Positions 1,856 through 52,800 of a stretch of 64,000 nt of DNA are shown here, piece by piece. Under the pieces are notes generated by a model that saw only the letters and a program-made list of their open reading frames with translations, was not told the origin of the DNA and did no database searches. Each line of letters opens with the position of its first letter. Position 1 is the stretch's first letter. The position numbers and the translations under genes are program-made. Source of the DNA: a bacterium. GTDB taxonomy: Bacteria > Patescibacteriota > Patescibacteriia > Patescibacteriales > UBA12465. Where the stretch lies: NCBI GenBank assembly GCA_021806615.1, contig JAJZRB010000001.1:207201-271200 (forward strand), read 5' to 3'.

Positions 1856-1874
1856 AAGATTCGATTAGACACGC

Positions 1875-8756: not shown

Positions 8757-9156
8757 AGAAATAAAGAAAACTTACGCACCAAAGGCCTTATTAAGATTTT
8801 TGTTGGCGGTTATTTTTTTGTCAGCCGGCATTTTCAGGATTCTTAATTTCAGCGTTGCCGAATTAGAGATGAAAAATTTGCAATTGCCGCACTTTTTATC
8901 TTATTTGCTTATTATTTTTGAAATAATTATCGGCATTTTCTTATTTTTAGGCCGATATTTAAAAAATGTTTATAGTTTATTGATAGGATTTTTGTCATTA
9001 GCTCTGCTTTGGGGACTGATTATTGACGGCGACCACATCGCTAGGCAAGCAGGAGAATTGTTTATATTCAAGACTACAGCTTTAGACTTTTTCATGCACC
9101 TGGTTTTTTTGGTAATTTTAATATCCCTCTATCTGGATGCCGAGGCGGAGGAGTGA
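8737..9156 (+). CDS. Small 4-TM membrane protein, DoxX-like
   Basis: Four hydrophobic helices. The family assignment is tentative. Confidence 0.4.
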   Translation: MILGNIKEIKKTYAPKALLRFLLAVIFLSAGIFRILNFSVAELEMKNLQLPHFLSYLLIIFEIIIGIFLFLGRYLKNVYSLLIGFLSLALLWGLIIDGDHIARQAGELFIFKTTALDFFMHLVFLVILISLYLDAEAEE

Positions 9157-9185
9157 CTACCAGCTTAAGCCCTCGTCGCTCTATT

Positions 9186-9216
9186 AAAAATCAACCCCAT
9201 AACGGAGTTGATTTTT
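9186..9216. terminator. Bidirectional terminator hairpin
   Basis: AAAAATCAAC-ccccataacgga-GTTGATTTTT lies between the convergent DoxX-like gene and tRNA-Gly. Confidence 0.6.
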
Positions 9217-9225
9217 ATTCTATAG

Positions 9226-9297
9226 AGCGGGCAAGCGGAATCGAACCGCCATCTTCAGCTTGGAAGGCTGACATAATAACCACTATACGATACCCGC
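9226..9297 (-). tRNA. tRNA-Gly(TCC)
   Basis: The reverse complement folds as GCGGGTA...TGCCCGC-T, with anticodon loop CTTCCAA and T-loop TTCGATT. The track ORF 9153..9341 is spurious. Confidence 0.9.
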
Positions 9298-9382
9298 AAA
9301 AATTAGATCAAGTTATATTTAAGCGTAAAAACAATATTTAGTCAATCGGATCATTATTTTGATAATGTTTTATTTTGCTTTG

Positions 9383-15701: not shown

Positions 15702-16109
15702 CTATACGGCCGGACCCATCGTGCTTCCCCCGCTGAATGGCACATATTTAAAGACGAAATAAGTTATAGCATAAGCTGCAAGGACGACAATCAGCCCGAT
15801 TATCGCCGCCCGGATCGTATCTTGAGCTTGAGTCACCAGCTCTTCGTTTCCTTGAGCCGTCATCCAGCGGAAGCCAGCGGTAATCATCAGGATGATAAAA
15901 GTGATTCCTAGGAAACTCAAGACAATCTGGATGACTCGCGCGATTATCACTTCTATTGTAATATCGCTGAAATTAGCCGTTTTAGCGACCGTATCGGTCA
16001 TAGGCGCTAACCCTTGGTCAGTGTTAGTCAGGAGTTGGGCAGAGGCTGATGATAAAAATAAAGTTAAAGATAGAGACAGGGTTAAGCAGAGAGCAAGGAA
16101 AGTTTTCAT
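15702..16109 (-). CDS. VirB2/TrbC-type pilin-like small membrane protein, paralog P1
   Basis: A signal peptide (...SSASA|Q), a variable segment, TM1, the loop GFRWMTAQGNEE and TM2 (IIGLIVVLAAYAITYF). Confidence 0.7.
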   Translation of the reverse strand: MKTFLALCLTLSLSLTLFLSSASAQLLTNTDQGLAPMTDTVAKTANFSDITIEVIIARVIQIVLSFLGITFIILMITAGFRWMTAQGNEELVTQAQDTIRAAIIGLIVVLAAYAITYFVFKYVPFSGGSTMGPAV

Positions 16110-16113
16110 ATGA

Positions 16114-16524
16114 TTATTTAACTATTATGTTGCGGAAAATAAAATTCCAAATCGCGTAAGAAGACATGGCTATAACCAGGCCGATCAAAGCTTCCCGTAT
16201 TGTATCCCTGGCTTTGCCGATCTCTTCTTCGTTGCCCCGCGCTCTCATCCAGGCAAATCCGGCAATTATCATCAATACTATGAAAGTCACCCCCAAGAAG
16301 CCTAAAAAGGCTCCGATAATCGTACCGATTATGATCGCGGTAGATGCTTTAGTCTCGTCAGTCTGATATCCGCCCTGGCTAGCAACATTAGTTAATCTGT
16401 CTAAGAGTTTATTCGGTTGTGGCGTAGGCGTCGGAGTTGGAGTCTGAGCCAAAGCCATTGCCGGGGCTGCCAGGAAACCCGCTAGTAACAGGGAACAGAT
16501 AGTAGATTGAATGATTTTTTTCAT
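16114..16524 (-). CDS. VirB2/TrbC-type pilin-like small membrane protein, paralog P2
   Basis: A signal peptide (...AMALA|Q) and a (TP)4 repeat directly after the predicted cleavage site. The loop is GFAWMRARGNEEE, followed by TM2. Confidence 0.7.
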   Translation of the reverse strand: MKKIIQSTICSLLLAGFLAAPAMALAQTPTPTPTPQPNKLLDRLTNVASQGGYQTDETKASTAIIIGTIIGAFLGFLGVTFIVLMIIAGFAWMRARGNEEEIGKARDTIREALIGLVIAMSSYAIWNFIFRNIIVK

Positions 16525-16534
16525 ATCTTTTCCA

Positions 16535-16954
16535 TTATTTAGTGAGCAGGACAGATGAGACTATCCTGCCGAATCCGGCGCTCAGCGCGTAAGCAATAAG
16601 GACAATAGCTAGGCCTATTGCCAGATGGCGGATAGTATCTTTAGATTTTCTGACCTTTTCTTCATTACCGGCCGCTTGTACCCAATCGTTAGCCGCTAAG
16701 AACATCAAAGTTATAAAAATAGTGCCCAATACCGATAGAAAGACTCGAACGACTATACTAATCATATCTTCTAGACTGGTTGTTGTATTATAGTCGCTGG
16801 TTGACGCTACCTTCCCTACATTGTTGTTGAATTCATCTACTTTTTGGCTGTTTATCAGGGCAGCGCTCGCTGGGCTGATGATAAGTAGAGATAAGAAAAA
16901 TGATAAAAGTAACTTTTTAGATATATTCGCAAAGATTATCCATTCGCGGGGCAT
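16535..16954 (-). CDS. VirB2/TrbC-type pilin-like small membrane protein, paralog P3
   Basis: A signal peptide (...SPASA|A) and the loop ANDWVQAAGNEEK. I placed the start at the first ATG (16954); the track ORF uses an upstream TTG that overlaps P4. Confidence 0.65.
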   Translation of the reverse strand: MPREWIIFANISKKLLLSFFLSLLIISPASAALINSQKVDEFNNNVGKVASTSDYNTTTSLEDMISIVVRVFLSVLGTIFITLMFLAANDWVQAAGNEEKVRKSKDTIRHLAIGLAIVLIAYALSAGFGRIVSSVLLTK

Positions 16955-16971
16955 AAATGTAAGATATTTGA

Positions 16972-17382
16972 TTAAGGCCAAAAATATTTGACGACGAAAT
17001 AAGTTATAACATATGCGCCCAATGTCACGATTAATCCGATAATGGCGTTAATTAAGGTATTAGTGGCTTCTTTGATTTTTTGATCATTGCCACGGGAAGT
17101 CATCCAAGTATAAGCGCCGTAAAGCAAATAAGCAAAGAAAGCTATGCCTACCAAACTTAAGCCCGTATATAAAACCGTACTTATCACTGAATTTAAGGGG
17201 GTGGCATTAGCCCCGGTTTCAAAACCAGCTTTTTGACCGGAAGCATCTAGGCCACTTTGTTTTTGAAAGTCGTAAGTGCCGCCGTCGCTCGGGTTAGCCG
17301 CCAAGGAAACTTGATAAGAGGCTAAAGGTAAGATTAGCATCACTCCGCCGATTATTAGATTTTTTAGTTTATTCCCGCTCAT
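16972..17382 (-). CDS. VirB2/TrbC-type pilin-like small membrane protein, paralog P4
   Basis: A signal peptide (...VSLA|A) and the loop GAYTWMTSRGNDQK, followed by TM2 (IIGLIVTLGAYVITYF). Confidence 0.7.
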   Translation of the reverse strand: MSGNKLKNLIIGGVMLILPLASYQVSLAANPSDGGTYDFQKQSGLDASGQKAGFETGANATPLNSVISTVLYTGLSLVGIAFFAYLLYGAYTWMTSRGNDQKIKEATNTLINAIIGLIVTLGAYVITYFVVKYFWP

Positions 17383-17795
17383 TATTTTAGAAGTTCTGTC
17401 CCCAAGAAAGCAGTGATAGCGTAAGCTGCAAATACGATGATTATCCCGATGGCAGCGTTAATAATCATGTTTTTAGCGTTAGCGACCGTTTGCTCGTTGC
17501 CACTCGCCGTCATCCAGCTTATACCAGCATAGATCATAAGTCCTAGAAATAAGACGCCTACGAAGGAAAGGACCAGCCCGATAATCTGGCCGACTTTAGT
17601 AGCTAAAAAATTCGTTCCATAGGAAGAACTGTCGCTTGCCGGGACGGTTTGTGCTTTGAATGCCCCGACGCTATTAGCCGTCTGATTTAGACCATCTATA
17701 GTAGTGCTGGCCGTATCTTGGGCTCCAGCCGCCGTAATCATTCCGGATAAAACCAAAATACATAGGACGAGGATAAAGATTATCTTTTTTTTCAT
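17382..17795 (-). CDS. VirB2/TrbC-type pilin-like small membrane protein, paralog P5
   Basis: A signal peptide (MKKKIIFILV...AAGA|Q) and the loop AGISWMTASGNEQ. I prefer the start at the second ATG (17795) because the first ATG lies inside an intercistronic stem-loop. Confidence 0.65.
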   Translation of the reverse strand: MKKKIIFILVLCILVLSGMITAAGAQDTASTTIDGLNQTANSVGAFKAQTVPASDSSSYGTNFLATKVGQIIGLVLSFVGVLFLGLMIYAGISWMTASGNEQTVANAKNMIINAAIGIIIVFAAYAITAFLGTELLK

Positions 17796-17880
17796 ATTTG
17801 AAAAATTAACCACTGCTCTAAATACGAAATTTTTCATATTCAGAGCAGTGTCCCCATAATCATGGGAACACTAAATTTTA

Positions 17881-18267
17881 TTAATTACCGCTTACAGCCG
17901 TATTAAGAGAATTGATAACAAAGTTAGCTATTCCCCAAGACGCCAAGATAATTATCAAGCCGATGACACCTGCACCCAATAATTTTCTTGCCTCAGCCGT
18001 TTTTTCCTCATTACCGGCCGCTGTCATCCATTTGAAGCCGCCCAGTAAGATGATGCCTACCGCAATGACGCCCAAGAAACCCAAAGCTACATTTATGACC
18101 CGGCCGATGATAGTTCTCGGGTCATTGTTTGCTAAGGAATTGTTTAATCCAGCATTTACTTCATTCAAGCCCGGATCAAATTGAGCCATGGCTGGTAAAG
18201 CCAAAAAAGGCAAAACCAAAAAAGAAATAATCGCTAGAGAAACTAAGTGTTTGGAAATTTTATTCAT
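17881..18267 (-). CDS. VirB2/TrbC-type pilin-like small membrane protein, paralog P6 (first gene of the operon)
   Basis: A strong SD (AAAGGTGGTG), a signal peptide (...LPAMA|Q) and the loop GGFKWMTAAGNEEK, followed by TM2 (VIGLIIILASWGIANF). Confidence 0.75.
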   Translation of the reverse strand: MNKISKHLVSLAIISFLVLPFLALPAMAQFDPGLNEVNAGLNNSLANNDPRTIIGRVINVALGFLGVIAVGIILLGGFKWMTAAGNEEKTAEARKLLGAGVIGLIIILASWGIANFVINSLNTAVSGN

Positions 18268-21410: not shown

Positions 21411-22070
21411 TTATTCTACTAATATTTGGCGATTAATGATATTTTCTCGGCTATATTTCTTTTTGGCGGTAATGATGATATTATTCATGCCTTTTTTTAA
21501 ATTTATATCTTGAGAAAAATATCCGTTATGATTATTGAGGACTATTTCTCCATTGATTTTAACCTCAGCTTCCGGCTCAGTTTGGCCGCTGACCGTAATG
21601 GTGTCGCTTTGGATGAGCAGATTTTTACTAGGTTGGCTGATAATCAGCTCCGGTGGCAGGATTATCTTTTTGAAATAAACGACTAGGTATAAGAAACAGA
21701 CTATGATGATGGCCAGAATAAGCAGGTTTTTGATGATTTTCGGGAAAATGATAAATTTATTTTTTTTGACCACTTTTTGGGAAAAGGGGTTATTTTTTTC
21801 CTCCCCCGCTGACTCTTCTTGCCAGCCGCGTAAAATTTCCCGAGGCTTCAGGCCTAGAAATTTAGCGTATTTTTTTAAGAAATTTTTGCCATAGAGTCCG
21901 GCAGGAAGCTTCTCGAAATTTTCTTCTTCTAGGGCGTTCAGGTATTCAACGCGGATATTGATTTGTTTGGCCGCTTCCTCTATTTTTAAATTTTTGTAGT
22001 GCCTGGCCTGGCGTAATTTTTCCCCCGTGGTTTCTTCTAGCGGCAGTTTTTTAGGTATGAAAGCGGTCAT
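21411..22070 (-). CDS. RodZ-like HTH membrane protein
   Basis: The N-terminal XRE-type HTH GEKLRQARHYKNLKIEEAAKQINIRVEYLNALEEENFEKLP, a single TM helix and an extracytoplasmic beta domain. Confidence 0.6.
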   Translation of the reverse strand: MTAFIPKKLPLEETTGEKLRQARHYKNLKIEEAAKQINIRVEYLNALEEENFEKLPAGLYGKNFLKKYAKFLGLKPREILRGWQEESAGEEKNNPFSQKVVKKNKFIIFPKIIKNLLILAIIIVCFLYLVVYFKKIILPPELIISQPSKNLLIQSDTITVSGQTEPEAEVKINGEIVLNNHNGYFSQDINLKKGMNNIIITAKKKYSRENIINRQILVE

Positions 22071-22522
22071 GAATTTATAACGACGCCATCAAGCATGGAT
22101 TGGGGCTTGGGTTGCACTGGCTCATTATTAGCGTTTATAGCTTCGCCATTCCAAGTCAACCCCATAGATGATAAGACGAATTTAACGATCAGGAAACTGG
22201 AAAATACGATTACCAGGCCAATCACGGCTGCCACGATTATCTTTTTAGCTTTACCGACCGCGTCCGCCGAACCGGCAGAAATCAAGAACATGAATCCCCC
22301 GTAGATGAACATTACCAGCGATAGGGAACCGACTAGACCTAATACTATTTTAGATACGCGTATAGCTAGGATTAAAAAATCGTTTACACCATAATTGCCT
22401 TGAGCATATCCTGAAGCGCTCGTGTCTACGATGGAGCTCGGTACTTGCGCGTGAGCGGCGCTTATATAGAATAAGCAACCAGCCATTAGGATGAAAGCTG
22501 CCAGATAAATTTTTTTATTCAT
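22067..22522 (-). CDS. Divergent VirB2/TrbC-type pilin-like protein, paralog P7
   Basis: A signal peptide (MNKKIYLAAF...SAAHA|Q), TM1, the degenerate loop GGFMFLISAGSADAVGKAKK, TM2 (VIGLVIVFSSFLIV) and a C-terminal tail of about 35 aa. The stop codon overlaps the RodZ-like start (ATGA). Confidence 0.55.
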   Translation of the reverse strand: MNKKIYLAAFILMAGCLFYISAAHAQVPSSIVDTSASGYAQGNYGVNDFLILAIRVSKIVLGLVGSLSLVMFIYGGFMFLISAGSADAVGKAKKIIVAAVIGLVIVFSSFLIVKFVLSSMGLTWNGEAINANNEPVQPKPQSMLDGVVINS

Positions 22523-22547
22523 AAAATGATATTTAAGTCGGTTGAAT

Positions 22548-23927
22548 TCAATTGACGGTTTGTTGGACCTTGGCCGCAGCTGTATCAATTATACCTTGTA
22601 CCTTGTCGCTGATATTTTTAACCATCGTATCGATCATCTCTTTGACCGCATCTTCGGCGGCCTGAGCATTTTTCCCTTTATACCAGCTTTTAGCAGTGAG
22701 AACCTGGCTCGCGAAAACTCCGATTTCATTATCATTTTCTTGCGTGGCGACTAAAGAGCGCAAAGCGGTAGGATGTTTCGTTTTTTCTAAATAACTCTTA
22801 ACCTGAGCCTCCTTGGTCATAAATTGTATGAAGTCCCAAGCGACATCAGGGTGGGCGCTCTTTTTAGAGACCACCTCTACCCAATAATTAGCGAAATTTA
22901 CATTAGTCGGCGGATTGCCCTCTATCTGAGGCAATTTAGCGACGGAGAAGTTCAATTTCGGAGCTTGAGCTTTTATAGTCGGGAGATCGTACGAATAACT
23001 GAACATAATAGCCAGGTTTCCAGAAATGAACATATCCAGGGAGTTCGGCAAGGAATTATTCCAAGCGTAAGATTCTTTGACCGGATTAGAGAAATCAGTA
23101 TAGAACCGCAAAGCTTCAAGCCCAGGATTATAGTTGCTGTCTTTCCCGCTCGGAGGCACCTTATTGAACGTCACTTGGCCGTTGTCGTCCATCATGACCG
23201 CTCCGTTCTGCATCATAAGGACAGATAAAATATCGCTAAAACGATTAATGTTGGAACTGCCCCCTAAGGCTACCCCGGACTGGATAATGCCCTGTTTTTG
23301 GTCCTGTTTAGTTAGTTTTTTAACATCTTGTAAGAACTCTTTATTCCAGTATTGAGGAACCTGGCTGATGCCGGCATTATTGAATAAGTCTTTATTATAG
23401 TACATAGCCAAGGTGTCTACAGATAAAGGTAATCCGTATATTTGCCCGTCGCCGAGTATTACGTCATGGCTGACAGCATCCACGAAATTATCTTTGAGCT
23501 CTTTAAGAGTCAAGCTGTTAGTCGTACGTAATTCGGGGATGACCTCTTTTTTAAGCGTGCCTTGGACGACCGGATAAGCCATGGTTATAGTGGCGGGCAT
23601 CGGCGCTAATTTTGATCGGTATTTTTCCATCCAGGTATTATGAATAGAGAAGATATCCGGACCGCGATCTTCGGCTAAGGCGTTGAGCAAAGCATTTTCA
23701 TATTCTTCATAACGAAGCTTGCGATACTCAATATTGACGAAAGGATGAAGGGCCTTATATTTAGTGATGATGTCCTGGAAAGCGTCTTGGCCGTCAAACA
23801 CGCGCCAATAGGTTAAAGTTATCGGTTGCATAGCGTCTTGAGTCGCTTGGTTGGTTATCTTGCAACCGAAACCGGAACTTATTAATAAAATAGCTAGAAG
23901 AGATAAGACCGTTATTTTCTTAGACAT
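22548..23927 (-). CDS. ABC-transporter substrate-binding lipoprotein (sugar-type, family 1)
   Basis: Lipobox SGFG-C and a typical extracellular solute-binding domain pattern. No permease or ATPase gene is adjacent. Confidence 0.75.
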   Translation of the reverse strand: MSKKITVLSLLAILLISSGFGCKITNQATQDAMQPITLTYWRVFDGQDAFQDIITKYKALHPFVNIEYRKLRYEEYENALLNALAEDRGPDIFSIHNTWMEKYRSKLAPMPATITMAYPVVQGTLKKEVIPELRTTNSLTLKELKDNFVDAVSHDVILGDGQIYGLPLSVDTLAMYYNKDLFNNAGISQVPQYWNKEFLQDVKKLTKQDQKQGIIQSGVALGGSSNINRFSDILSVLMMQNGAVMMDDNGQVTFNKVPPSGKDSNYNPGLEALRFYTDFSNPVKESYAWNNSLPNSLDMFISGNLAIMFSYSYDLPTIKAQAPKLNFSVAKLPQIEGNPPTNVNFANYWVEVVSKKSAHPDVAWDFIQFMTKEAQVKSYLEKTKHPTALRSLVATQENDNEIGVFASQVLTAKSWYKGKNAQAAEDAVKEMIDTMVKNISDKVQGIIDTAAAKVQQTVN

Positions 23928-25625: not shown

Positions 25626-28600
25626 CTATTTTTTCAAGTTGAGATCATCAAGCTTGACGCTCAGGAGTTTGCTTACCCCGTCAGTTTCCATGGTCACTCC
25701 GTATAGTATGCTCGCCTTACGCATGCAGGCGCGATTATGCGTAATGACTATGAATTGGGTCTTATTTGATAGATCGTCTAAAATTTGTGCTAGACGTTCG
25801 GAATTAGCTTCATCTAAAGCTGCGTCCACTTCGTCTAAAACTACGAAAGGCGAAGGGTTGGCGCTGATGATCGCGGAAATCAAAGCGATAGCAGTCAAGG
25901 CGCGTTCGCCGCCGGAGAGCATAGTGACGGTTTGGATTTTCTTGCCGGGAGGAATAGCCTGGATTTCGATTCCGGCCAGGCCGACAGCATTGTGTTTTTT
26001 CAAGAATTTTATTCTTTTTAATTTTTCATCCATTTCTTTCTTAATGCCCATTTCGGCCGGAGTCAAGCCCGATATTTCGCCTCCTGCCTCGCCGTTAGGC
26101 ATACTTGCGCCAGCATTGTTTTTAGCCTCTTCTTTTTCCAGGTCTTCAATCATGACTTTGAAAATTTTAGCGCTGCCGCCGTTAAAAAGGATTTTAAAAT
26201 AGTCGTTGAATTTTTCTGATATCACTTTGAATTCAGAATCAAAACGATTTTTTATATTTAGATCTAATTCGTAAATTATTTCCTCTAAGGATTTGATGGC
26301 TTTATTCAGGTCGGCCGTCTGGCCGCTTAAGAAATCATACCGCTCTTTAGTCTCCTGATATTCTTTTTCGGCTTCGGGGTCAATGCCGCCGATTTGTTCT
26401 AACTGCGATTTATAAGAATTAATGTTTTTTTGCCAGCGTTCGATATCGATAACTTCCTCGGTTACGGGGTAGTTTTTTAGGTCGGCCAAGCTTATTTCTT
26501 CATTGCGGATATTCGCTTCCAGATCTTCGAGCTTGGTTTCTTGGCGCGCGGCTTCGATACGCAATCTATTCATTTCTCCTAGGATATCGGCGATTTCTTG
26601 CTGTAGGGATTGGATATTCTTTTGGCATTCGAACATCTGCCCCTTTTCCTTTTCTTTCGCTTGGTTTAGCTCTTCCCATTTATCGGATAGTTTCCGTATC
26701 TCTTGGTTTAATAGGTTGACAGCTTGGTTGATAGCGGCCTTTTCCGTTTCAATTTTAGAGGCATCAAATTTTATTTGGCTTTTGGACAATTTATTTTTGA
26801 TGTCGATAATCTCTTTTTCTAAATGTGATTTTTGATCTTGTAGCAAGCGTCGCCGCTCTTCCAATGATGAAGATTTAAAGCGGCAATCTTGGATTTTTTC
26901 TGAAATAGATTGTTTCTTGTCCTGCAATTCATTGAGGCGGTCGTTCTTGCCTATCTCATCCAGTTTTTGGTCTAATTGGGAAATTTTTTGTTTGATAGCT
27001 GTTTTTTCTTCTTCAATCCGGGAAGCATCAAATTTTATCTGAACCTTAGATAATTTTGCTTCGATATCCTGAGCCTCTCTGGTTAGTTGGTATTTTTTGT
27101 CTTCTAAGAGCTTGATTCTTTCCGCCGACAACGATAGTCTAAGCCTTTCTTCGTTGAGCTGGCTGCTTATTTCCTGTTTTTCTTCGGTGGCCGAGATAAT
27201 CTCTTTTTGTATTTTTTGGATCCTTTCCAGGCTATCATTATTGTCGCCCTTTAAGAATACTTCGATCTTGCTGGTAAAATCCTTTTTAGCGGCCGCAATC
27301 CGGGTCTTGACTTGATTAATATCGGTTTCCTGCCCGATAGAATCTAATGTCTTTAAAAATTCTTCTATCAATTTTGTCAGCCCCCTGCTTTTATCAGGGT
27401 CGGTGCTCGTTTTTTTTATAGACTGATTAAGCGTCATCATCTCTTGGTTCAGGCGCTCAAGCTTTTGTTGAACAGACTTTAATCGATTGTCCAGACTATT
27501 TTTTTCGGCTTGGCCACTGTCTGATCGCAGAGCAGCAATTTCGGATTGGATATTTTTCAGTTCGGATTTTAATTCTTCGTTTTTGTTATTCAGCCAAGAA
27601 ACATCAAACTGCCCTTGTACTTCTAAGTTCGCCTCCAATACGGCGTCCAGCCTTGATAGTTGTTTCAAATTATGGCTTCTTTCCTCTTCTAGTGCTTTAG
27701 CTCCCTGTCTCGACTGATTAGTTCGGTCAATCTCCCTATTAACGGCTTGCAGGGCTTCGCGCCAACTCAGTTCTTCATTTATCTGGCTATTTTTAACTAA
27801 AGCGTCTATTTCTGAGTTGATATTCTCTAAAGAAGCGTTTAATTCCCCCTGTTTGTTATTCAGCCAAGAAACATCAAATTGTCCCTGGGATTCCAGCTGT
27901 ATCTCTAACTCCGCCTGTAGCTTGGCTAATTGTTTTAAATATTGGTTTTTTTGATTTTCTAAATCTTTTAAACGCGGCTGTAGTTCGTTCATTTCTCGGA
28001 AGTTGTCAGTCGCCCGGATCTTATTTAATTCTTCATTAAGCTTGTCTAATTTTTTTTCTCGTTCTATTTTTATTTTCTCATTTTCTAAAAAGCGCTGGTT
28101 AAAAGAATCTAGCTTCTTATTGATATCCCATGAGAGCCAACCATAGTAGGCTAATTGTTTGTCTCGAAGTTCATTTTCAATTTCGCCGCGACGTTTTAAT
28201 TTTTCTACTTGCCTGGTCAGGCTTTTAAGGCGCGGCTTTATCTCCGAGAGCAACATGTCTACTTGCTGCAAGTTTTCATAACTATTTTCTAGCTTATTTA
28301 AGGCGGAATCGCGTTTAATTTGAAACTGTTTGACGCCCGTGGCTTCGTCAAAAAAATCCTTACGTTCAGCCGCTGAGGTAGTCAGGAAATTTTCTACCAT
28401 GCCCTGGCCAATAACGCTATAGGTTTTTTGCCCGAAGTTAGCCTTAGCTAGAAGCATCTGGATGTCAGCTAGGCGGACGCGGTTGTTATTCAATAAATAC
28501 TCGCTTTCCCCACTACGGTATAAGCGTCGAGTGATAATGATTTCCGGGCAGCCGGAGATTATTTGATCCAGATCGCTTTCTTTCTCGATTAGTTCGGGGA

Positions 28601-28907
28601 CGATCGTCCTATTTTTAGCTGCCGCTGCATTATTCAAATACAATGATACTTCAGCCAAGCTCAATTGATTTTTCTGGTCTGAACCGGAGAAGATGACATC
28701 CTCGCTTTTTTTGCCGCGCAACGTCTTTAAGCTTTGTTCTCCGAGCGCCCAACGGATAGCATCCGCAACGTTAGATTTACCTGAGCCATTCGGACCGACG
28801 ATAGAAGTCAAGCCGCGTTTCTTATCGTCAATTAAACCGGAGAAAATAAGTTTATTTTTGTTAGCAAAGGATTTAAAGCCCTGGATTTCCAGCTTTTCTA
28901 GATACAT
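25626..28907 (-). CDS. smc: SMC-family chromosome segregation ATPase, atypical (no recognisable hinge)
   Basis: N-terminal head MYLEKLEIQGFKSF...GPNGSGKSNVADAIRWALGEQS. C-terminal head LSGGERALTAIALISAI...FVVLDEVDAALD...FIVITHN. The roughly 720 aa between them is almost entirely coiled-coil-like. Confidence 0.85.
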   Translation of the reverse strand: MYLEKLEIQGFKSFANKNKLIFSGLIDDKKRGLTSIVGPNGSGKSNVADAIRWALGEQSLKTLRGKKSEDVIFSGSDQKNQLSLAEVSLYLNNAAAAKNRTIVPELIEKESDLDQIISGCPEIIITRRLYRSGESEYLLNNNRVRLADIQMLLAKANFGQKTYSVIGQGMVENFLTTSAAERKDFFDEATGVKQFQIKRDSALNKLENSYENLQQVDMLLSEIKPRLKSLTRQVEKLKRRGEIENELRDKQLAYYGWLSWDINKKLDSFNQRFLENEKIKIEREKKLDKLNEELNKIRATDNFREMNELQPRLKDLENQKNQYLKQLAKLQAELEIQLESQGQFDVSWLNNKQGELNASLENINSEIDALVKNSQINEELSWREALQAVNREIDRTNQSRQGAKALEEERSHNLKQLSRLDAVLEANLEVQGQFDVSWLNNKNEELKSELKNIQSEIAALRSDSGQAEKNSLDNRLKSVQQKLERLNQEMMTLNQSIKKTSTDPDKSRGLTKLIEEFLKTLDSIGQETDINQVKTRIAAAKKDFTSKIEVFLKGDNNDSLERIQKIQKEIISATEEKQEISSQLNEERLRLSLSAERIKLLEDKKYQLTREAQDIEAKLSKVQIKFDASRIEEEKTAIKQKISQLDQKLDEIGKNDRLNELQDKKQSISEKIQDCRFKSSSLEERRRLLQDQKSHLEKEIIDIKNKLSKSQIKFDASKIETEKAAINQAVNLLNQEIRKLSDKWEELNQAKEKEKGQMFECQKNIQSLQQEIADILGEMNRLRIEAARQETKLEDLEANIRNEEISLADLKNYPVTEEVIDIERWQKNINSYKSQLEQIGGIDPEAEKEYQETKERYDFLSGQTADLNKAIKSLEEIIYELDLNIKNRFDSEFKVISEKFNDYFKILFNGGSAKIFKVMIEDLEKEEAKNNAGASMPNGEAGGEISGLTPAEMGIKKEMDEKLKRIKFLKKHNAVGLAGIEIQAIPPGKKIQTVTMLSGGERALTAIALISAIISANPSPFVVLDEVDAALDEANSERLAQILDDLSNKTQFIVITHNRACMRKASILYGVTMETDGVSKLLSVKLDDLNLKK
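26682..27110 (-). repeat. Internal coding duplication B in smc (aa ~600-652 and ~688-742)
   Basis: LSKVQIKFDASRIEEEKTAIKQKISQLDQ matches LSKSQIKFDASKIETEKAAINQAVNLLNQ at an 88-aa offset. The similarity is visible in the DNA (catcaaattttat... at ~26763 and ~27026). Confidence 0.8.
27510..27935 (-). repeat. Internal coding duplication A in smc (aa ~325-375 and ~415-466)
   Basis: QLESQGQFDVSWLNNKQGELNASLENINSEIDAL matches NLEVQGQFDVSWLNNKNEELKSELKNIQSEIAAL at a 90-aa offset. The DNA string ttgttattcagccaagaaacatcaaa occurs at ~27586 and ~27854. Confidence 0.85.
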
Positions 28908-28988
28908 AATGAATTACTTTAGTATTTGAGACATTTAAGATATAATAATATCATAATAAACTTTTATTTATAAAAAAACAACAGTTAT

Positions 28989-30039: not shown

Positions 30040-30126
30040 GGGCGAATGGTGAAATTGGTAGACACGCAAGCTTGAGGGGCTTGTGGCCGCAAGGCTGTGG
30101 AGGTTCGAGTCCTCTTTCGCCCACCA
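30040..30126 (+). tRNA. tRNA-Leu(GAG), 3' CCA encoded
   Basis: GGGCGAA...TTCGCCC-A-CCA, with anticodon loop TTGAGGG and a long variable arm. Confidence 0.9.
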
Positions 30127-30136
30127 TTTGCTATAA

Positions 30137-30210
30137 GGGCGCATAGCTCAGCTGGTTAGAGCACTTCGTTTACACCGAAGGGGTCCAGGGTTCGAATCCT
30201 TGTGCGCCCA
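30137..30210 (+). tRNA. tRNA-Val(TAC)
   Basis: GGGCGCA...TGCGCCC-A, with anticodon loop TTTACAC. Confidence 0.9.
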
Positions 30211-30223
30211 CTAGACATCGTAG

Positions 30224-46212: not shown

Positions 46213-48711
46213 ATGGCTGGAAAATTCATTAAGATCAGGGGGGCGCGAACTAATAACTTAAAAGATATCGGTCTAGATATCCCTCGCGATCAGCTGGTAG
46301 TCGTTACTGGCTTGTCTGGTTCCGGCAAATCATCTCTTGCCTTCGATACTATTTATGCTGAAGGACAGCGCCGTTATGTCGAATCCCTGTCTTCTTATGC
46401 GCGGCAGTTCGTCGGTTTGATGGATAAGCCGGATGTTGATTTGATTGAGGGCCTGTCACCAGCGATTTCTATTGATCAGCGTACGACTCAGCATAATCCT
46501 CGATCTACCGTCGGCACCATTACGGAAATTTATGATTATTTGAGGCTTTTATATGCTCGCGCCGGTTGGCCGTATTGTCCGCAATGCGGCGAGAAATTGA
46601 AAAAATCGTCTGAGGAGAAAAAAAAGGCTAAAACCGTGCGCGGCCGGGAAATAAAATCTAATGTCGTAGAAAGATCGTATGTTTGCCCGTCTTGCAGTTA
46701 TCGCCGTCCAGAATTAGAGCCTCGCGATTTTTCTTTTAATTCCGGCCATGGCGCTTGTCCATCCTGCGGCGGGTTGGGGACTAAGTCGGAAATTGATGCC
46801 AGCTTGGTTTTTAATGTTAATTTAAGCATCGTGGAAGGAGCTATCAAGCCCCTATCCCATGCCAATCTCAACGGTAACGGCCTGTTGGCCGCATTGGAAG
46901 ATTTAGCCGCTCGCCATAATTTCAGTTTGCGCCCAGCGATTAAAGATCTCCATCCGGATCATAGGAAACTGCTGGTATCCGGCGACGGGCAGTTCGGCGG
47001 GATTTTAAAGCATCTAGAAGAAAAATATCAAGAGACTAAATCTAGCTTCGTCAAACAAGAGATTGAAAAAGTAATGAGAGTCTCCTTATGCCCGTCTTGT
47101 AGGGGCGCACGTCTTAAGCCGGAATCGCTGGCTGTTACGGTAAACGGCTTATCGATCATCGAAGTGACCGATAAAAGCATCAAGGAATTATCTGATTTAT
47201 TGGGTTCCTGGATAAAAAATAGTGCGGCTTTAAACGGTAACGCTAAGATAATAGAGCCTATTTTACGAGAAGTGATTAGTAATTTAGGTTTTTTGTCTGA
47301 TGTCGGTTTAGGATATTTGACTTTAAGCCGAGCTGCGATGACTTTATCGGGCGGCGAAGCGCAGCGCATCCGCTTAGCTTCTCAGGTCGGATCAACCTTG
47401 AGCGGCGTCCTTTATGTTTTAGATGAGCCCTCTATCGGTTTACATCAGCGGGATAATGATAAATTAATCGCTACTTTGAAAAGATTACGCGATAACGGCA
47501 ATACGGTAATTGTCGTTGAGCATGACGCGGCTACTATGCTGGCGGCTGATTGGCTTGTTGATATCGGTCCTGGCGCCGGTGATTCCGGGGGACGAGTCTT
47601 ATTTACTGGAACGCCAGCCGGGATCAAGGATTGCCAAGATTCTCTGACCGGGGCTTATTTAGCCGGTCGGAAAGAAATAAAGATACCCAATAAATTCAGG
47701 CCAGGAAACGGCCGAGAAATAAAAATAATCGGAGCGACAGAGCATAATTTAAAGAATATCGACGTGGCGATACCGCTAGGCAAGCTCGTGGCTATTACTG
47801 GCGTTTCTGGATCAGGCAAGTCTACTTTGATGAGCGATATTCTGGCTAAGGCGCTGAGTCGTAAATTCTATCGGGCTAAAGTTGAACCCGGGGACCATAA
47901 AGGCCTAAGCGGTTTAGAATTTATAAATAAAGTTATTGATATTGATCAATCGCCCATCGGACGCACGCCACGCTCTAACCCCGCGACCTATACCGGATTG
48001 TTCACTTATATCCGCGATTTATTTGCGGCTTTGCCGGAGGCGCGCATCAAGGGCCTGGGGCCCGGACATTTTTCTTTTAATGTCCCTGGTGGGCGATGCG
48101 AAAACTGTTCCGGCGATGGAGTGATCAAGGTAGAAATGCAATTTTTATCCGATGTCTATTTGACTTGCGATGTCTGCGGCGGCAAGAGATTCAAATCTAA
48201 GGTCTTGGAGGTCCTATATCAAGGCAAGAATATTTTTGAGGTCTTAGAGATGACCGTTCAAGAAGCTAATGACTTTTTTAAGCATCATTCGGCTATCAGC
48301 CAGAAGCTCAAAACCCTGTCCGAAGTCGGTTTGGATTATATCAAGCTCGGGCAAAGCGCGACGACCTTCTCTGGCGGCGAAGCGCAGCGTATAAAATTAG
48401 CGACCGAGCTATCGCGGCGCGCTACCGGCAAGACTCTCTACATCCTGGACGAACCGACGACCGGCCTGCATTTCGCTGATATCGACCGTCTTTTAAAAGT
48501 GCTCAATATGTTGGTCGATCAGGGCAACACCGTTTTGATTATTGAACATAACTTGGATGTTATCAAGTCAGTGGATTGGGTAATTGATCTTGGCCCGGAT
48601 GGCGGTGAAAGCGGCGGATATCTAGTAGCTGCCGGCACGCCTCCGGAAATAGCAAAAATTAGCCGCAGCTATACCGGGCAATATTTGAAGAAAATGTCGG
48701 TTATAAAGTAA
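46213..48711 (+). CDS. uvrA: Excinuclease ABC subunit A, short form lacking the UvrB-binding domain
   Basis: [28 protein letters not shown], two ABC modules and zinc modules. Only 33 aa separate CPQC (aa 122) from CPSC (aa 158). Confidence 0.9.
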
Positions 48712-48744: not shown

Positions 48745-49239
48745 TTATAGTTCCGCCAGCAGCTTCAATTCTATCCGCCGGCTACCAGTGTCCAGCGTAG
48801 CAAAAGTAGCTTGATGCCATACCCCCGCTAAGTTGCCGGGGTTCGCTATAATGGTAGAGCCCCGCCGTTCTAACCATGGCTTATGGGTGTGGCCATAGAA
48901 TATATAATCTATTATTTCGGCCGTTGATTCTAATAATATTTTTATTTTGGCTGGTTCGTGGACTAGCCCGATATGCAATCCCGCTAATTCTAAGAGCCCA
49001 GTTTCACCGTAATAGCGGATATTACGATAGGCACCCAATTCCGTTTCTGAAAAAAGCTCAATATTGCCTCTAACCATAAAAATCTCGCCGGAGAATGCCG
49101 CGAGATTTTTAATAGTTTCGCTAGTTGTCGTATCGCCGCAAAAAATTATTTGTTTAATCTCATTAGTGCGGCACCAGCCTAGGCATTTTTTCAGGTTTTC
49201 TAGATTATCATGGATATCCGAAAGAACGGCAATCAACAT
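48745..49239 (-). CDS. YfcE/MJ0936-family metallophosphoesterase
   Basis: The motifs LSDIHDN, GDTT, GN and GHTH, in the canonical order. Confidence 0.85.
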   Translation of the reverse strand: MLIAVLSDIHDNLENLKKCLGWCRTNEIKQIIFCGDTTTSETIKNLAAFSGEIFMVRGNIELFSETELGAYRNIRYYGETGLLELAGLHIGLVHEPAKIKILLESTAEIIDYIFYGHTHKPWLERRGSTIIANPGNLAGVWHQATFATLDTGSRRIELKLLAEL

Positions 49240-49240
49240 A

Positions 49241-49816
49241 TTATTTTTTCCCGCGCAATCTTATCTCGTAAGACATTTGTTCTAACTTCCTCAAATGTCC
49301 TCGTGCTTGGTCATATTTAGTACGCAGATAACCGGTCAGGTCGAAATCGACTAATTGGACCATGATATCATCGGCCGTCTTTTTAATTTTGGCTACCTCG
49401 GAGAATTGGCCGGCCGCGGCCTGGTTGGTCGCATAGCGCACCAGTTCGCCTATGAGGTCGCAGATACCGCCCAGATAGCCTTCATAGTCTAAGTTTAATC
49501 CCGCGGTAGAATCAATTTTTTTATTTTTAATGATTATCTGGAAAGTTTTTCCCTCTAAATATTCCTCCACGGCCGCCTTATAAGCTCCTTCGCGGTGCAA
49601 GCGCTCGGATCCGAAACGATCTTCCAGGTCCTTTAAAGATTTTTCCATTTCATTTATTTTTCTTTCGGCCGATTTCAAGTCTTGGCGGTGCAGAGCAAAG
49701 ATAGTTTTTTTCGCCTCAAAGAGAATATTGTTAGACGCGCTTATTATCTGGCGGCGCTGAGACTCGTTAGCCTGATAATCATTTTTTAATTTTTTTAGGA
49801 ATTTATCATTAATCAT
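49241..49816 (-). CDS. Translin-family protein (COG2178-like)
   Basis: An all-helical ORF with the motif YEGYLGGICDLIGELVRYA (Y..G..D..GEL.R) and N-terminal ALHRQDLKSAE, as in translin/TRAX-like proteins. Confidence 0.55.
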   Translation of the reverse strand: MINDKFLKKLKNDYQANESQRRQIISASNNILFEAKKTIFALHRQDLKSAERKINEMEKSLKDLEDRFGSERLHREGAYKAAVEEYLEGKTFQIIIKNKKIDSTAGLNLDYEGYLGGICDLIGELVRYATNQAAAGQFSEVAKIKKTADDIMVQLVDFDLTGYLRTKYDQARGHLRKLEQMSYEIRLRGKK

Positions 49817-49818: not shown

Positions 49819-52800
49819 TTATTCAATTACTTTAAATACCTCTTCTAAGCTGGTTTCTCCTTGGAGAGCCTTGATAATTCCGTCTTGTAGCATGGTAATC
49901 ATGCCCTCTTTTATGGCCTCATTTTCAATGTCAAAATCGGTGACGTTGTCGGTCTGGATTAATTTCTGGATAGCTGGCGTCATAGTTATGGTTTCGTAGA
50001 GCCCCAGACGTCCCTTATAACCGATATTCTGGCATTTTTCGCAGCCGGTTCCTTCGTAGAATACTAATTTTTCTGGAATTTTAATTAAAGAATTATGAAT
50101 TTGGCTGAGACTTTTCTGGACTTGTTCCAGCCGTTCAGAAGAGGGGGGCGTTATTTTTTTGCAATAAGGACAGAGGCGGCGGACTAGACGCTGCCCGATA
50201 GTGAAGTCAATAGAATTGGCTAGTGTTTGTCGGTCTAATCCTAGTCCGGCAAAACGGGAAATAGCCCCAGCCGCGCTATTAGCATGGATGGTTGATAAGA
50301 CTAGGTGCCCGGTCAAGGAGGCCTCAATGGCTATCTTGGCAGTTTCTGAGTCGCGGATTTCTCCGATCATCATGATATTCGGATTTTGACGCAGCAAGGA
50401 GCGCATCGCTGAAGCAAAAGTATAACCATGTTCTTCGTCTATTTGAGTTTGCATGATGCCTGGCAGCTGGTATTCGATCGGATCTTCTACGGTAATTATT
50501 TTAACGTCAGGCTTGTTTAATTTATTCAAAATACTGTAGAGGGTGGTAGTTTTTCCTGACCCAGTCGGACCGGTCGTCAAGATTATGCCGCGGGTTTTCT
50601 TCATGGCCAACTGTAGAGAATCAAACGCTACCGAGGTGATCCCCAGCTTATTCATATCTAAATTAGCGGCCGTAGAAGAGAGCAGACGGACGACGATGGT
50701 TTCACCGTAACCGCCGGCGATAATGGATAAACGGCAGTCAATTTTATGATCGGGTAGATAGATCGTAAAGCGTCCATCAAAAGTAGCTCTTTTAATATTA
50801 GTCGGCGTTCCGGCCAAGATTTTTATTTCCGATAAAATCGGCAAATAGCTGGTTTTCGGTAAATTTAGGATATCGTGTAAAACGCCATCAATACGAAAAC
50901 GAACTTTGACGTTATTCTCCGTAGGTTCAATATGGATATCGCCGGCCTCCGCCACTGCCGCAAGGGCCATGATCATATTGATTAAATCTCCGGTAGGGAT
51001 TTCTTTGGCGGCCTCGGCTATTTTGGTTATGTCTTGGCTTAGTTTCTTCGCCTGTTCCATTTCCGTCGTCTTAATTTTTACGCCGCGGCCGATAGTTTGG
51101 GAAATGACGATGTCATATAGTTCGTTGACATAATCAAAATTGCCAATGACGCGATAGATTTCTTCTAAGGAAGTCAGTCCTTCTAAAACTTTTAAAATTC
51201 CGTCTTGCAGCATGGTAATCATGCCGTCCTCAACAGCTTGTTGGAGAATTTTAAAAGAAGGCGCATTATCAACTGTCAGCTGTTTGATCTTATCGTTCAT
51301 CGTGAAAATTTCATAGATACCGCTGCGGCCTTTATAACCGATGAAATTGCAAGCCGAGCAGCCTGGTCCTGTCTGGTAGATTGTCGGCAGTTCAGCCGGA
51401 ACGTCAATGCCGGCCTTAGGAGAAATAACCGCCAAGATTTTATCTACCTGTTCTTTTTCTTCCGCTGATAATATCTTTTTTTGCCGGCATTCCGGGCAGA
51501 GGCAACGGACTAGTCGCTGCCCGATGACGGCGTTAATTGAAGGCACTAGGAAATAAGGCTTGACGCCGATATCGATAAGTCGCGGGATAACGCCAGCGGC
51601 ATCATTGGTATGAAGGGTGGATAAGACGAGGTGCCCGGTCAGAGAAGCTTGGACGGCTATTTCGGCCGTTTCTAAGTCTCGGATTTCTCCGACCATAACG
51701 ACGTTCGGGTCTTGGCGCAGTATAGAGCGCAAGCCGTCGGAAAAAGTATAGCCGCGCTTATTATCTACCTGGCTTTGATTTATGCCTTTGAGCTGATATT
51801 CAATCGGATCTTCCAGGGTAATGATCTTAGTACCTGGTTGATTGAGTTGGTTCAGAACGGCATATAGGGTCGTAGTTTTTCCTGAACCGGTCGGTCCGGT
51901 TGTCAGGACGAGGCCGTTGGGTTTAGCGATCTCATGTTTTAAGATTGGCAGTATTTCCGGCCGGATACCCAGCTTTTCGAATTCTAGAGAAGCGGCCGAT
52001 GAATCCAGAAGACGCATCACCACGCTTTCTCCATAGGCGGTAGGCAAGAAGGAACAGCGGACGTCTATTTTTTTGTCTTTTAAGTAAATGGTATAGCGGC
52101 CGTCCTGCGGTCGGTCATTGATATTTATCTTGACGCGAGCCAGGATCTTTAAGCGGGCGACGATTTTATTCCATTTTTCCCGGCTGATAACGGCTGCTTC
52201 CTGGAGGACTCCGTCGATTCTGATCCTAATGACCACGCCGTTTTCCTCCGCTTCTATATGGACATCGCTCCCGCCGACTTTTAAGGCCGTAGCTAACATC
52301 AGCGTAACGACATCGGTGATATTAACCTCATTGATTTTTTCATTTAGGCTTTTATAGCTGCTGATAGCTTCTTTGAATTTTTCCAAGCTTTCCTCGTTTA
52401 TTTCTACGCCGCTTTCATATTTTTTGACTTTGGGGAGGGACTTATAAGCTTCCAAGCCCACTTCCAAGCTGTTAGGAGAAATAAGATATAGCCGCGTGCT
52501 GGCGAAATACTGTTCGCCGAGACGCGCTAATTCGTCTTCCACTTCCCGCGTCGGTTCTAAGCAGCCTAGACGGATATTCTTCCCGTCGTAATAGAAACAG
52601 ATCGCTTTCATTTCTCGAGCTCGGCCTTCTTGGACCAGAGCTAAGGCTTCCGGACTTATAGAGAAGCCGTATAGATTAACATAATCTAAGCCTAATTGTT
52701 GGGAATTTTGTTGTGTCTGTTTTTCAATCCGCTTCAGTTTTATCTCGTCTTGCTTTTTAGCAAAACGACCGGCGACGCTTTCTTCGTCATCGGTCGGATT

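Follow-up and report, generated by a model that had tools for sequence, protein, structure and literature searches.

A probable chromosomal Smc of a Falkowbacteria-like Patescibacterium with a predicted helical cap in place of the hinge and paired module duplications in its arm

We describe a 1093-aa protein, encoded in a 64,000-nucleotide stretch of patescibacterial DNA (hereafter the window), that is probably the chromosomal smc product of a Falkowbacteria-like Patescibacterium and probably belongs to a large family with a short all-helical cap instead of the hinge and an arm lengthened by paired module duplication. In this protein the hinge, itself a domain of ~165 aa, appears from sequence comparison and structure prediction to be replaced by a conserved and unrelated two-helix cap at aa ~504-552, at which the polypeptide very probably turns back (~aa 528) into a long antiparallel coiled coil. 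The features discussed below are collected in Table 1.

Table 1. Features of the smc locus, with positions counted from the first nucleotide of the window
Feature	Position	Strand	Basis and remarks
smc gene, hinge-less Smc	25626..28907	minus	1093 codons and stop; ORF listing, SMC_N 3e-49, TIGR02168 612 bits
N-terminal half of ATPase head, aa 1-178, Walker A GPNGSGKS at aa 38	28374..28907	minus	Pfam, motif positions, PDB Smc head chains at E ~1e-93
Arm module A1, aa 307-396, N-terminal strand; core QGQFDVSWLNNK aa 341-352 at 27852-27887	27720..27989	minus	Self-similarity 198, core conservation 0.96, helix break at aa 340-345
Arm module A2, aa 397-488, tandem copy of A1; core aa 431-442 at 27582-27617	27444..27719	minus	Self-similarity, AlphaFold; missing from aligned one-unit relatives
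Predicted helical cap in hinge position, aa 501-556: loop, helix 504-525, turn 526-529, helix 530-552, loop	27240..27407	minus	AlphaFold of aa 471-588; no hinge-profile similarity; no Cys
Arm module B1, aa 575-662, C-terminal strand; core LSKVQIKFDAS aa 619-629 at 27021-27053; putative partner A2	26922..27185	minus	Self-similarity 168, helix break at aa 622-628, co-degeneration with A2
Arm module B2, aa 663-750, tandem copy of B1; core aa 707-717 at 26757-26789; putative partner A1	26658..26921	minus	Self-similarity, AlphaFold; ~88-aa block missing in aligned one-unit relatives
C-terminal half of ATPase head, aa 908-1093: LSGGE aa 997, Walker B VLDEVD aa 1023, variable insert aa 926-948	25629..26186	minus	Pfam, motifs, PDB, relatives, AlphaFold
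Promoter-like site (extended -10), upstream of smc	28945..28974	minus	Consensus scan only
Terminator-like hairpin, 12-bp stem then T run, just 3' of the smc stop codon	25543..25571	minus	Consensus scan only

The predicted cap at the apex

AlphaFold predicted aa ~180-900 as all helix and placed no strands in the apex region. Modelled as a fragment, aa 471-588 formed four helices with a pLDDT of 90.7 and a pTM of 0.77, and the top TM-score matches of this fragment in Foldseek were up-down four-helix bundles; with nothing at E<=0.001, these matches give a hint of a four-helix bundle and carry no homology information. The same holds for the comparison of the apex profile with PDB, which yielded little besides designed helical bundles and other generic helical or coiled-coil chains, together with one weak match to an Smc5 arm fragment (E 0.04). 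On the model, the apex may be a compact four-helix cap rather than a bare hairpin. A preliminary description of this DNA had placed a very small apex at the fold-back; the predicted cap spans ~50 aa with its tip at aa 526-529, and the picture is amended by the possible four-helix form. Its statement that STDPDKSRG (aa 501) and KGDNNDS (aa 553) are the only helix-breaking stretches proved wrong, as the repeat cores of the arm also break the helix and further breaks lie at aa 372-374, 464-466, 655-657 and 803-821.

The cap could be aligned between members of all three length classes of hinge-less relatives (~745, ~885 and ~1090 aa), and an iterated apex HMM recognised it in 39 of 151 representatives. 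Even between very diverged members, hydrophobic positions in both cap helices are conserved, some of them outside a plain a/d heptad pattern. We infer that the cap would provide the apex dimerisation normally given by the hinge, for example through the packing of two caps into a helical bundle. It is unlikely that the protein is derived from Smc but carries a non-dimerising cap, such that nothing but the heads and kleisin, or contacts along the arms, would join the complex, unlike the closed Smc ring. This arrangement is favoured by the prediction of the isolated cap as a self-contained four-helix bundle for which a partner is unnecessary, and by the absence of net positive charge from the cap, as counted from the sequence. 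To our knowledge, however, every characterised SMC-family protein (SMC, Rad50, MukB, RecN) dimerises at its apex, which we count against a non-dimerising cap. The conserved hydrophobic positions in both helices argue in the same direction, as does the observation that an unrelated dimerisation module suffices for function in B. subtilis (PMC5344682).

Identity as Smc and the search for a hinge

The protein carries an ABC-type head split between its termini, with Walker A, the signature LSGGE and Walker B/D-loop. The heads had been called canonical at the outset, and all quoted motifs were indeed located where they had been described (GPNGSGKSN at aa 38, LSGGERALTAIAL at aa 997 and VLDEVDAALD at aa 1023). 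SMC_N matched at 3e-49 over aa 2-1079 (Pfam), and TIGR02168 (NCBIfam) reached 612.1 bits against a cutoff of 567.35, with a match in three stretches of which the best covers aa 2-527. A phmmer search of PDB matched Smc heads at E ~1e-93, while a few full-length eukaryotic SMC chains matched the arm plus head. According to a Pfam scan of the window ORFs, rplS adjoins the gene; a relative with a hinge (P0143) has rpsP and rplS nearby, and a hinge-less one (P0142) has a KH-domain gene and trmD nearby. We take smc ... rpsP-KH-trmD-rplS to be the classical neighbourhood in bacterial genomes, which is supportive rather than defining. We regard the protein as Smc because TIGR02168 exceeds its cutoff, because the heads match solved Smc heads and because rplS adjoins the gene.

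We considered it improbable that a normal Smc is encoded elsewhere and that the present protein is a distinct SMC-like one, for instance a repair factor resembling Rad50/SbcC or RecN or a defence-system ATPase. Several observations speak for such a protein: the known hinge-less SMC relatives are repair proteins, the NCBI name for many members of the hinge-less family is just 'AAA family ATPase', and Pfam scans of ~50 window ORFs revealed neither ScpA (PF02616) nor ScpB (PF04079), nor a second SMC or other partner. Paralogy was also raised for a hinge-less clade from the ocean, where the authors judged it rather unlikely (PMC12153180). Rad50/SbcC and RecN do share ABC-type heads on an antiparallel coiled coil with a non-hinge apex. 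However, their models score far below cutoffs here, at 25-50 bits against cutoffs of ~400-1087. Rad50/SbcC dimerises through a CXXC zinc hook, which is absent from this protein: its only Cys residues are at aa 120, 675, 761 and 1061, leaving none in aa 121-674, and with Rad50 models at 25-50 bits (cutoffs 700-1087) and sbcC at 25 (cutoff 478) we rejected this identity. We likewise rejected RecN, which is about half the size (~550 aa, with a short coiled coil, against 1093 aa) and whose model TIGR00634 gave 25.6 bits against a cutoff of 407.85. None of the ten ORFs that flank smc encodes an Mre11/SbcD-type nuclease (Pfam Metallophos), and the sole Metallophos-family ORF scanned (48745-49239) lies ~20 kb from smc. 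A separate SMC-like protein is further opposed by the housekeeping rplS neighbourhood, with likewise placed hinge-bearing and hinge-less relatives, and by the closest relatives of some hinge-less members, which are hinge-bearing Smc proteins with 50-59% identity over aligned N- and C-terminal segments; this looks like in-place replacement of the hinge in an Smc.

Searches for the hinge itself were uniformly silent. Pfam gave no match to SMC_hinge (PF06470) in the 1093-aa Smc even at E<=10, no hinge match appeared among its PDB phmmer results, and a local hinge HMM, built from nine close hinge-bearing proteins, picked out of 271 sequences only the nine it came from. When the apex was compared with the hinge profile to profile (hhalign), the probability was 0.04. 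Together with the all-helical apex, these results uphold the original claim that no hinge is recognisable; a hinge match within aa 480-620 had been set as its refutation, and neither Pfam nor the local HMM found one there. A true hinge that has diverged too far for recognition is very improbable. Patescibacterial proteins are often highly diverged and Pfam can miss remote domains, but the repeat blocks stand only ~88 aa apart and the flanking loops only ~50 aa, where ~165 aa would be needed, and this stretch is confidently predicted as helix without strands. Moreover, the hinges of relatives with 40-56% identity over the rest of the protein were detected at E 1e-26 to 1e-31, yet their profile is silent here.

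Paired modules in the two strands of the arm

Two pairs of repeats, A in the N-terminal strand and B in the C-terminal strand, had been noticed from short cores at 90- and 88-aa offsets. Both are real, and they are far longer than first noticed. In an ungapped BLOSUM62 diagonal scan, aa 307-398 aligned with aa 397-488 (repeat A, offset 90) at a score of 198, and aa 575-652 aligned with aa 663-740 (repeat B, offset 88) at a score of 168, whereas 100 shuffled sequences averaged 47.6 and never exceeded 63. The cores themselves read QGQFDVSWLNNK at aa 341 and 431 in repeat A, and LSKVQIKFDAS at aa 619 and LSKSQIKFDAS at aa 707 in repeat B. The duplication is seen at the DNA level as well, with 71% identity over 124 nt for A and 76% over 54 nt for B; a blastp self-comparison of the 1093-aa Smc gave no off-diagonal matches. 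Across 137 related Smc proteins, the best internal score had class medians of 47-92, or 47-62 when only the short, mid and hinge-bearing classes are counted, and no protein outside the long class exceeded 107. Although coiled coils are biased in composition and deletions at repeats occur in some database entries, an assembly artefact or chance coiled-coil similarity is refuted, and has next to no probability, given scores 3 times the shuffle maximum and well above other Smc arms, copies that differ at 24-29% of DNA positions, and the same architecture in no fewer than 80 independent species representatives, among them two records titled as chromosomes.

The arm, aa ~180-907, is predicted as helix with mirror-placed breaks, from which the strand pairing is proposed; the full-length AlphaFold model reached a pTM of only 0.30, and its heads (pLDDT <50) were left out of use. 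Helix breaks at aa 340-345 and 708-716 have positions summing to ~1055, while those at aa 431-433 and 622-628, and likewise those at aa 502-503 and 553-555, sum to ~1057. With the arm tip at aa 526-529 and the mirror centre at ~aa 528, the mirror-image placement of the repeats described earlier is confirmed. Among 120 long-class orthologues, lineage clusters that had lost the A1 core had preferentially lost B2 in four cases of six (two ties, none contrary), and those that had lost the A2 core had preferentially lost B1 in all six, again with none contrary. The mirrored breaks and the reciprocal degeneration of the cores support contacts in which A1 would lie opposite B2 and A2 opposite B1, and thus lend indirect support to the pairing that had been proposed for a fold-back at ~530.

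Evolution of arm length and comparison with known systems

The arrangement of two A and two B modules is common to the at least 80 GTDB species representatives, which where named are mostly Cand. Falkowbacteria or Patescibacteria; the two records titled as chromosomes are ~0.9-1.0 Mb in length. Relatives of ~885 aa have one unit per strand, and the A core is absent from the ~745-aa proteins. Only long-class proteins thus have the core twice; the short class lacks it, and proteins of the mid class and of the hinge-bearing class (close relatives of ~1000-1035 aa) have no more than one copy. It was found at ~aa 324-341 in five of eight hinge-bearing relatives and at ~aa 332-341 in aligned one-unit hinge-less ones. 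In aligned one-unit proteins, the ~90-aa block of the N strand and the ~88-aa block of the C strand are missing together. Strand lengths, measured between conserved anchors in the 14 proteins in which both strands were measurable, change together in the same way, at ~175/142, ~238/208 and ~324/293 aa for the N and C strands. Comparison of arm length and repeat number in orthologues thus yields three length classes with unit numbers correlated between strands, as the positional correlation expected of the repeats in the preliminary description had it.

Orthologous units share 53-60% identity, compared with 40-44% for paralogous units within one protein; since orthologous units are more alike than paralogous ones, the duplication predates the family and is old and not peculiar to the source genome. 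The proposal that ~90 residues of both strands were duplicated in register, lengthening the arm, therefore stands on the paired units of relatives, and is amended in that the event is old and shared and brings the arm up to the canonical ~340-aa length, not to an unusual one. Because hinge-bearing and one-unit hinge-less relatives carry at most one A core, the two-module state very probably arose by one tandem duplication on each strand. The gain was ~86-90 aa per strand, or ~13 nm by our own calculation (taking ~0.148 nm for each coiled-coil residue), which comes close to one functional period of the Smc arm. An arm of the ~238-aa class thereby very probably became one of the canonical ~340-aa class, with the head and apex kept in phase.

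By a parsimony argument, hinge loss would have preceded the duplication. The neighbour-joining tree of head domains was poorly resolved and star-like, and for hinge losses we relied on close pairs only; the cap-bearing P0142 and P0250 both have hinge-bearing Smc proteins as their closest relatives among 150 representatives. Three proteins (P0099, P0101 and P0108) lack only one A unit or only one B unit, which, if real, would give unbalanced arms. P0099 and P0101 are 99.5% identical at the DNA level and were assembled from different samples of a single JGI sample series; their breaks fall exactly inside 43-53-nt exact repeats. We weighed the three as evidence against paired modules and have provisionally set them aside.

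The hinge-less protein shares with B. subtilis-type Smc (Smc-ScpAB) the head motifs and overall head sequence, a TIGR02168 score above cutoff, the neighbourhood, an arm of ~320-350 aa per strand and the conserved head-proximal region GGIDP (aa 840-844); it differs in its ~50-aa two-helix cap and in the two recognisable tandem modules per strand. In the study of Bürmann et al. (2017, PMC5344682), the arms of natural Smc proteins fall into length clusters of 163, 238 and 341 aa, and B. subtilis Smc with resized arms functions with a periodicity of 91 aa; the strand lengths of ~175, ~238 and ~324 aa found here parallel these natural modes. In the same study a Rad50 zinc hook could stand in for the hinge in B. 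subtilis Smc, giving Smc(Zh). Smc(Zh), Mini-Smc and the extended-arm constructs resemble the present proteins in their small unrelated apex and steps near 91 aa, whereas the proteins described here are natural, have a Cys-free helical cap rather than a zinc hook, and reach the length step through module duplication in each strand. A 'hinge-less' SMC clade, branching near Actinomycetes, has been reported once before, from ocean metagenomes (Sussfeld et al. 2025, PMC12153180). It shares SMC-type heads, an antiparallel coiled coil and the lack of both hinge and CXXC with the Patescibacteria Smc. The two differ in host lineage, and the patescibacterial samples include groundwater and lakes. Arm modules, length classes and hinge-bearing sister proteins were not reported for that clade, and our literature search found no report of a Patescibacteria hinge-less Smc family or of paired module duplication.

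Our mechanistic model is that the hinge-less protein would still act as the Smc of a Smc-ScpAB-type DNA-organising motor. As a broader and more tentative proposal, for which we put the chances at slightly below even, a naturally hinge-less Smc may organise the chromosomes of Patescibacteria, the hinge having been exchanged for the cap more than once and the arm growing or shrinking by whole periods in evolution as a ~90-aa module is tandemly duplicated or lost on both strands. The 'AAA family ATPase' labels may also mean that Smc is annotated in Patescibacteria genomes less often than it occurs. The roles of the hinge and arm in DNA loading and loop extrusion are still debated, and the family offers many natural sequences that lack the hinge yet retain the heads, the head-proximal arm and the arm phasing. 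Its three discrete arm-length classes, linked by a recognisable module, provide a natural test of the 91-aa periodicity rule, while its minimal apex lends itself to studying hinge-free dimerisation and the ~745-aa proteins to compact constructs for structural work. If the proposal is true, these proteins would be the natural counterpart of the B. subtilis Mini-Smc and zinc-hook experiments, and the hinge, including its DNA-binding and gate functions, would be dispensable for a working Smc motor, whereas arm phase would not.

Identity and surroundings of the Smc protein

The window Smc combines Smc heads with an all-helical arm of canonical length, carrying two modules per strand, and a small helical cap, and the number of modules is coordinated across both strands. 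These results confirm the observation made in the preliminary description and support, in amended form, its reading of a paired arm duplication with a small apex. Pfam SMC_N covers the entire protein (aa 2-1079, 3e-49), the bacterial Smc equivalog model NCBIfam TIGR02168 was passed with 612 bits (cutoff 567), and every motif previously quoted from the ORF was found at its assigned residues. Rad50, SbcC and RecN were rejected as identities, with NCBIfam models scoring far under their own cutoffs. A PDB sequence search gave strong matches to constructs of the Smc head, and matches via arm and head to a few eukaryotic SMC chains of full length; no hinge chain or hinge stretch was matched.

In a consensus scan, smc is preceded by a promoter-like site and followed by a strong hairpin resembling a terminator. 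Its neighbours are housekeeping genes: upstream lie a cytidylate-kinase-like gene and rplS, downstream a gene for a ComM/Mg-chelatase-like ATPase. The window gene adjoins rplS, the gene for P0143, a hinge-bearing database protein, lies near rpsP and rplS, and that for hinge-less P0142 adjoins a KH-domain gene and trmD; we take these rpsP/KH/trmD/rplS surroundings to be the classical bacterial smc neighbourhood. Pfam scans of ~50 window ORFs gave no match to ScpA or ScpB.

Several further features were observed. The C-terminal head of Smc holds a Gly/Ala/Glu-rich variable insert (pLDDT <50) that is 7-10 aa shorter in all 7 relatives examined that cover the region. Six small ORFs, alike by eye, have hydrophobic N- and C-terminal stretches, and a seventh near smc gave a weak T4SS_pilin match (E 1.9e-05, narrowly missing the Pfam cutoff). 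One protein matches T2SSE, the type II/IV secretion ATPase family (E 8e-233), in two stretches and therefore looks like two ATPase units fused in tandem. Another ORF has its match in Translin (PF01997, 5.7e-21), a mainly eukaryotic and archaeal family, and a UvrA-like ABC ATPase is shorter than the usual ~940 aa. Eleven tRNA genes were found, two of them directly downstream of rplS; a short 'ORF' antisense to tRNA-Gly, which it overlaps, is unlikely to be a gene.

Coordinates of the smc ORF, its repeats and other features (window positions unless given as aa or gene positions)
Feature	Position	Strand	Length
smc ORF	25626-28907	minus	1093 aa
Smc C-terminal head	25629-26186		
Variable head insert	aa 926-948		
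A repeat, ungapped diagonal scan (offset 90)	aa 307-398 vs 397-488		
B repeat, ungapped diagonal scan (offset 88)	aa 575-652 vs 663-740		
Local module match, locus L081	gene positions 1549-1637 vs 1813-1901		
Local module match, locus L083	gene positions 1012-1071 vs 1282-1341		
tRNA genes (eleven)	2459-43303		
62-aa 'ORF' overlapping tRNA-Gly	9153-9341		62 aa
Six small ORFs in a row	15702-18267		128-151 aa
Seventh small ORF	22067-22588		
tRNA Leu-GAG and Val-TAC	30040-30211		
UvrA-like ABC ATPase	46213-48711		832 aa
Translin-family ORF	49241-49816	minus	
T2SSE protein	49819-52833	minus	1004 aa

The apex and the hinge-to-cap change

The preliminary description had recognised no hinge in the window Smc, and each search agreed with it: no Pfam SMC_hinge match was obtained even at E<=10, the PDB search was negative, and profile-profile comparison of the apex with the hinge of close relatives returned a probability of 0.04. 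The full-length AlphaFold model (mean pLDDT 70.7, pTM 0.30, 92-sequence alignment; heads weak, arms confident) is helical from ~aa 180 to 907, with predicted breaks at 340-345, 431-433, 502-503, 526-529, 553-555, 622-628 and 708-716. The fragment aa 471-588, modelled from a diverse 32-sequence alignment, reached pLDDT 90.7 and pTM 0.77 and forms four helices (472-500, 504-525, 530-552 and 557-587). Its best TM-scores against the PDB were to up-down four-helix bundles, none of them statistically significant, and the profile of the apex region matched little there besides designed helical bundles and generic chains of helical or coiled-coil type. The hinge is thus absent from the window Smc and not hidden. 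The two-helix cap is alignable across members of all three hinge-less length classes, and an iterated cap profile picked it up in just 39 of the 151 representatives.

Cap and hinge occur in closely related proteins. Cap-bearing P0142 (919 aa, found on more than 24 contigs) and hinge-bearing P0143 (1035 aa) share 59% and 52% identity in the parts flanking the apex, and ~60 aa in the former stand where the latter has ~180 aa of hinge. The nearest relative of cap-bearing P0250 is likewise hinge-bearing, P0208, and across both pairs (loci L085-L087) identity outside the apex is 50-59%. Since cap-bearing proteins are here nearest to hinge-bearing ones, the hinge-to-cap change seems, from these sequences, to have taken place, or to have spread by transfer, on more than one occasion; the neighbour-joining tree proved too weak for counting the events. 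The two pairs point to repeated hinge loss or to cassette exchange. P0250 may retain a weak trace of hinge entry ('EAEQRFG' aligned to 'EARQRFGG').

Arm modules and their probable pairing across strands

The two duplicated pairs noticed earlier in the arms are real, and larger than first described. Their scores in an ungapped diagonal scan were 198 (A) and 168 (B), against a maximum of 63 in 100 shuffles. A second, more realistic null was the best internal score in 137 related Smc proteins, for which medians by class ran from 47 to 92 (47-62 for short, mid-length and hinge-bearing proteins), with no score above 107 outside the long class. Judged from sequence, each arm strand has two tandem modules, A1 and A2 and then B1 and B2. 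The copies are only 71% (A) and 76% (B) identical at the DNA level, indicating that the duplications are old and not assembly artefacts. Orthologous modules (53-60% identity) are more alike than the two modules inside one protein (40-44%); the duplication is therefore older than the family as sampled. Nowhere is the arm better conserved than in the cores QGQFDVSWLN and KFDAS, with column conservation of 0.96 vs 0.4-0.7 around them in 110 close homologues.

The mirror-symmetric placement of the repeats had been taken to mean that A1 pairs with B2 and A2 with B1, and two indirect tests, helix-break symmetry and reciprocal core degeneration, support this. The AlphaFold helix breaks are mirror-placed about aa 527-528, with position sums of 1055-1057. 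When all four cores were scored in 120 proteins of the long class, some lineages lacked one A core. Where A2 was lost and A1 kept, B1 was more degenerate in all 6 lineage clusters; where A1 was lost and A2 kept, 4 of 6 clusters had B2 more degenerate than B1 and the other 2 had lost both, so that no lineage cluster among these proteins contradicted the pairing. Both patterns agree with the outcome expected if A1 pairs with B2 and A2 with B1.

Identity to the 120 closest database proteins is 60-75%; they are almost all 1080-1110 aa long and, where named, from Patescibacteria or Falkowbacteria, and none has a Pfam hinge. The same architecture was found in at least 80 species in a scan of species-representative genomes, down to 43% identity, including two ~0.9-1.0 Mb Falkowbacteria records titled as chromosomes (CP066698.1 and OW818634.1). 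Many such records titled 'uncultured Gammaproteobacteria bacterium' (TPA; L005, L009-L013 and others) carry a Falkowbacteria-type smc (44-71% identity), and the taxon given in these titles is probably wrong. Among 1.84 billion cluster representatives, searched exhaustively, 12,304 matched at E<=1e-30. By length the best 150 group at ~745, 885 and 1040-1090 aa, apart from nine proteins of 995-1035 aa, which alone among them carry SMC_hinge.

Module number is correlated between the strands in these relatives: blocks are missing together and strand lengths change together. Aligned to the window Smc, each one-unit protein (hinge-less P0128, P0134, P0136 and P0142; hinge-bearing P0143) lacks one ~90-aa N-strand and one ~88-aa C-strand block. 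From conserved anchors to the cap, N/C strand lengths are ~175/142, ~238/208 and ~324/293 aa (14 measurable proteins). No A core occurs in 42 of 42 short proteins, at most one in mid-length and hinge-bearing proteins (at ~aa 318-341 in the latter and in the mid-class examples listed), and two only in the long class.

Three database proteins, P0099, P0101 and P0108, speak against paired modules, being short of a single A or a single B module on one strand only. P0099 (loci L081 and L082) and P0101 (L083 and L084) are 99.5% identical in DNA and were assembled from different samples of a single JGI series (3300026153, 3300026161, 3300026162 and 3300026176). Within this one population, two assemblies are short of precisely one A module and two more of precisely one B module. 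Exact repeats of 43 nt and 53 nt contain the breakpoints, and collapse during assembly is the likely origin of these variants. P0108, from a different species, also lacks one B module; all three could be either assembly collapses or real recombinants with unbalanced arms. In the P0099/P0101 lineage the two B modules have 53 nt in common without a mismatch, and the two A modules 43 nt. Local module matches at L081 and L083 are 90% identical over just 60-89 nt, compared with 71-76% for the copies in the window gene, a pattern that suggests gene conversion between tandem modules.

Arm length and the functional period

No literature on SMC proteins without a hinge was found for Patescibacteria or the candidate phyla radiation. 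An abundant 'hinge-less' SMC clade from ocean metagenomes, branching near Actinomycetes, has been reported (Sussfeld et al. 2025, PMC12153180), and hinge-less SMC as such therefore has precedent; unlike the family of the window Smc, however, that clade is described with neither arm modules nor length classes. In the literature we found nothing that describes the window Smc family, its cap and length classes, or a paired duplication fitting the 91-aa rule.

In nature, Smc arms come in several preferred lengths, with modes of 163, 238 and 341 aa, and resized B. subtilis Smc works only at lengths on a 91-aa period, which is near the coiled-coil superhelical period (Bürmann et al. 2017, PMC5344682). 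The two arms of an SMC dimer touch periodically along the rod (Diebold-Durand et al. 2017, PMC5526789). We propose that duplication of one ~88-90-aa module per strand would lengthen the arm by one functional period (~13 nm, calculated at ~0.148 nm per coiled-coil residue), shifting it from the 238-aa to the 341-aa class with the angular phase between head and apex unchanged, and that the modelled cap may be the source of apex dimerisation. The two-module state would then be viable and conserved because a whole-period gain keeps the phase between head and apex.
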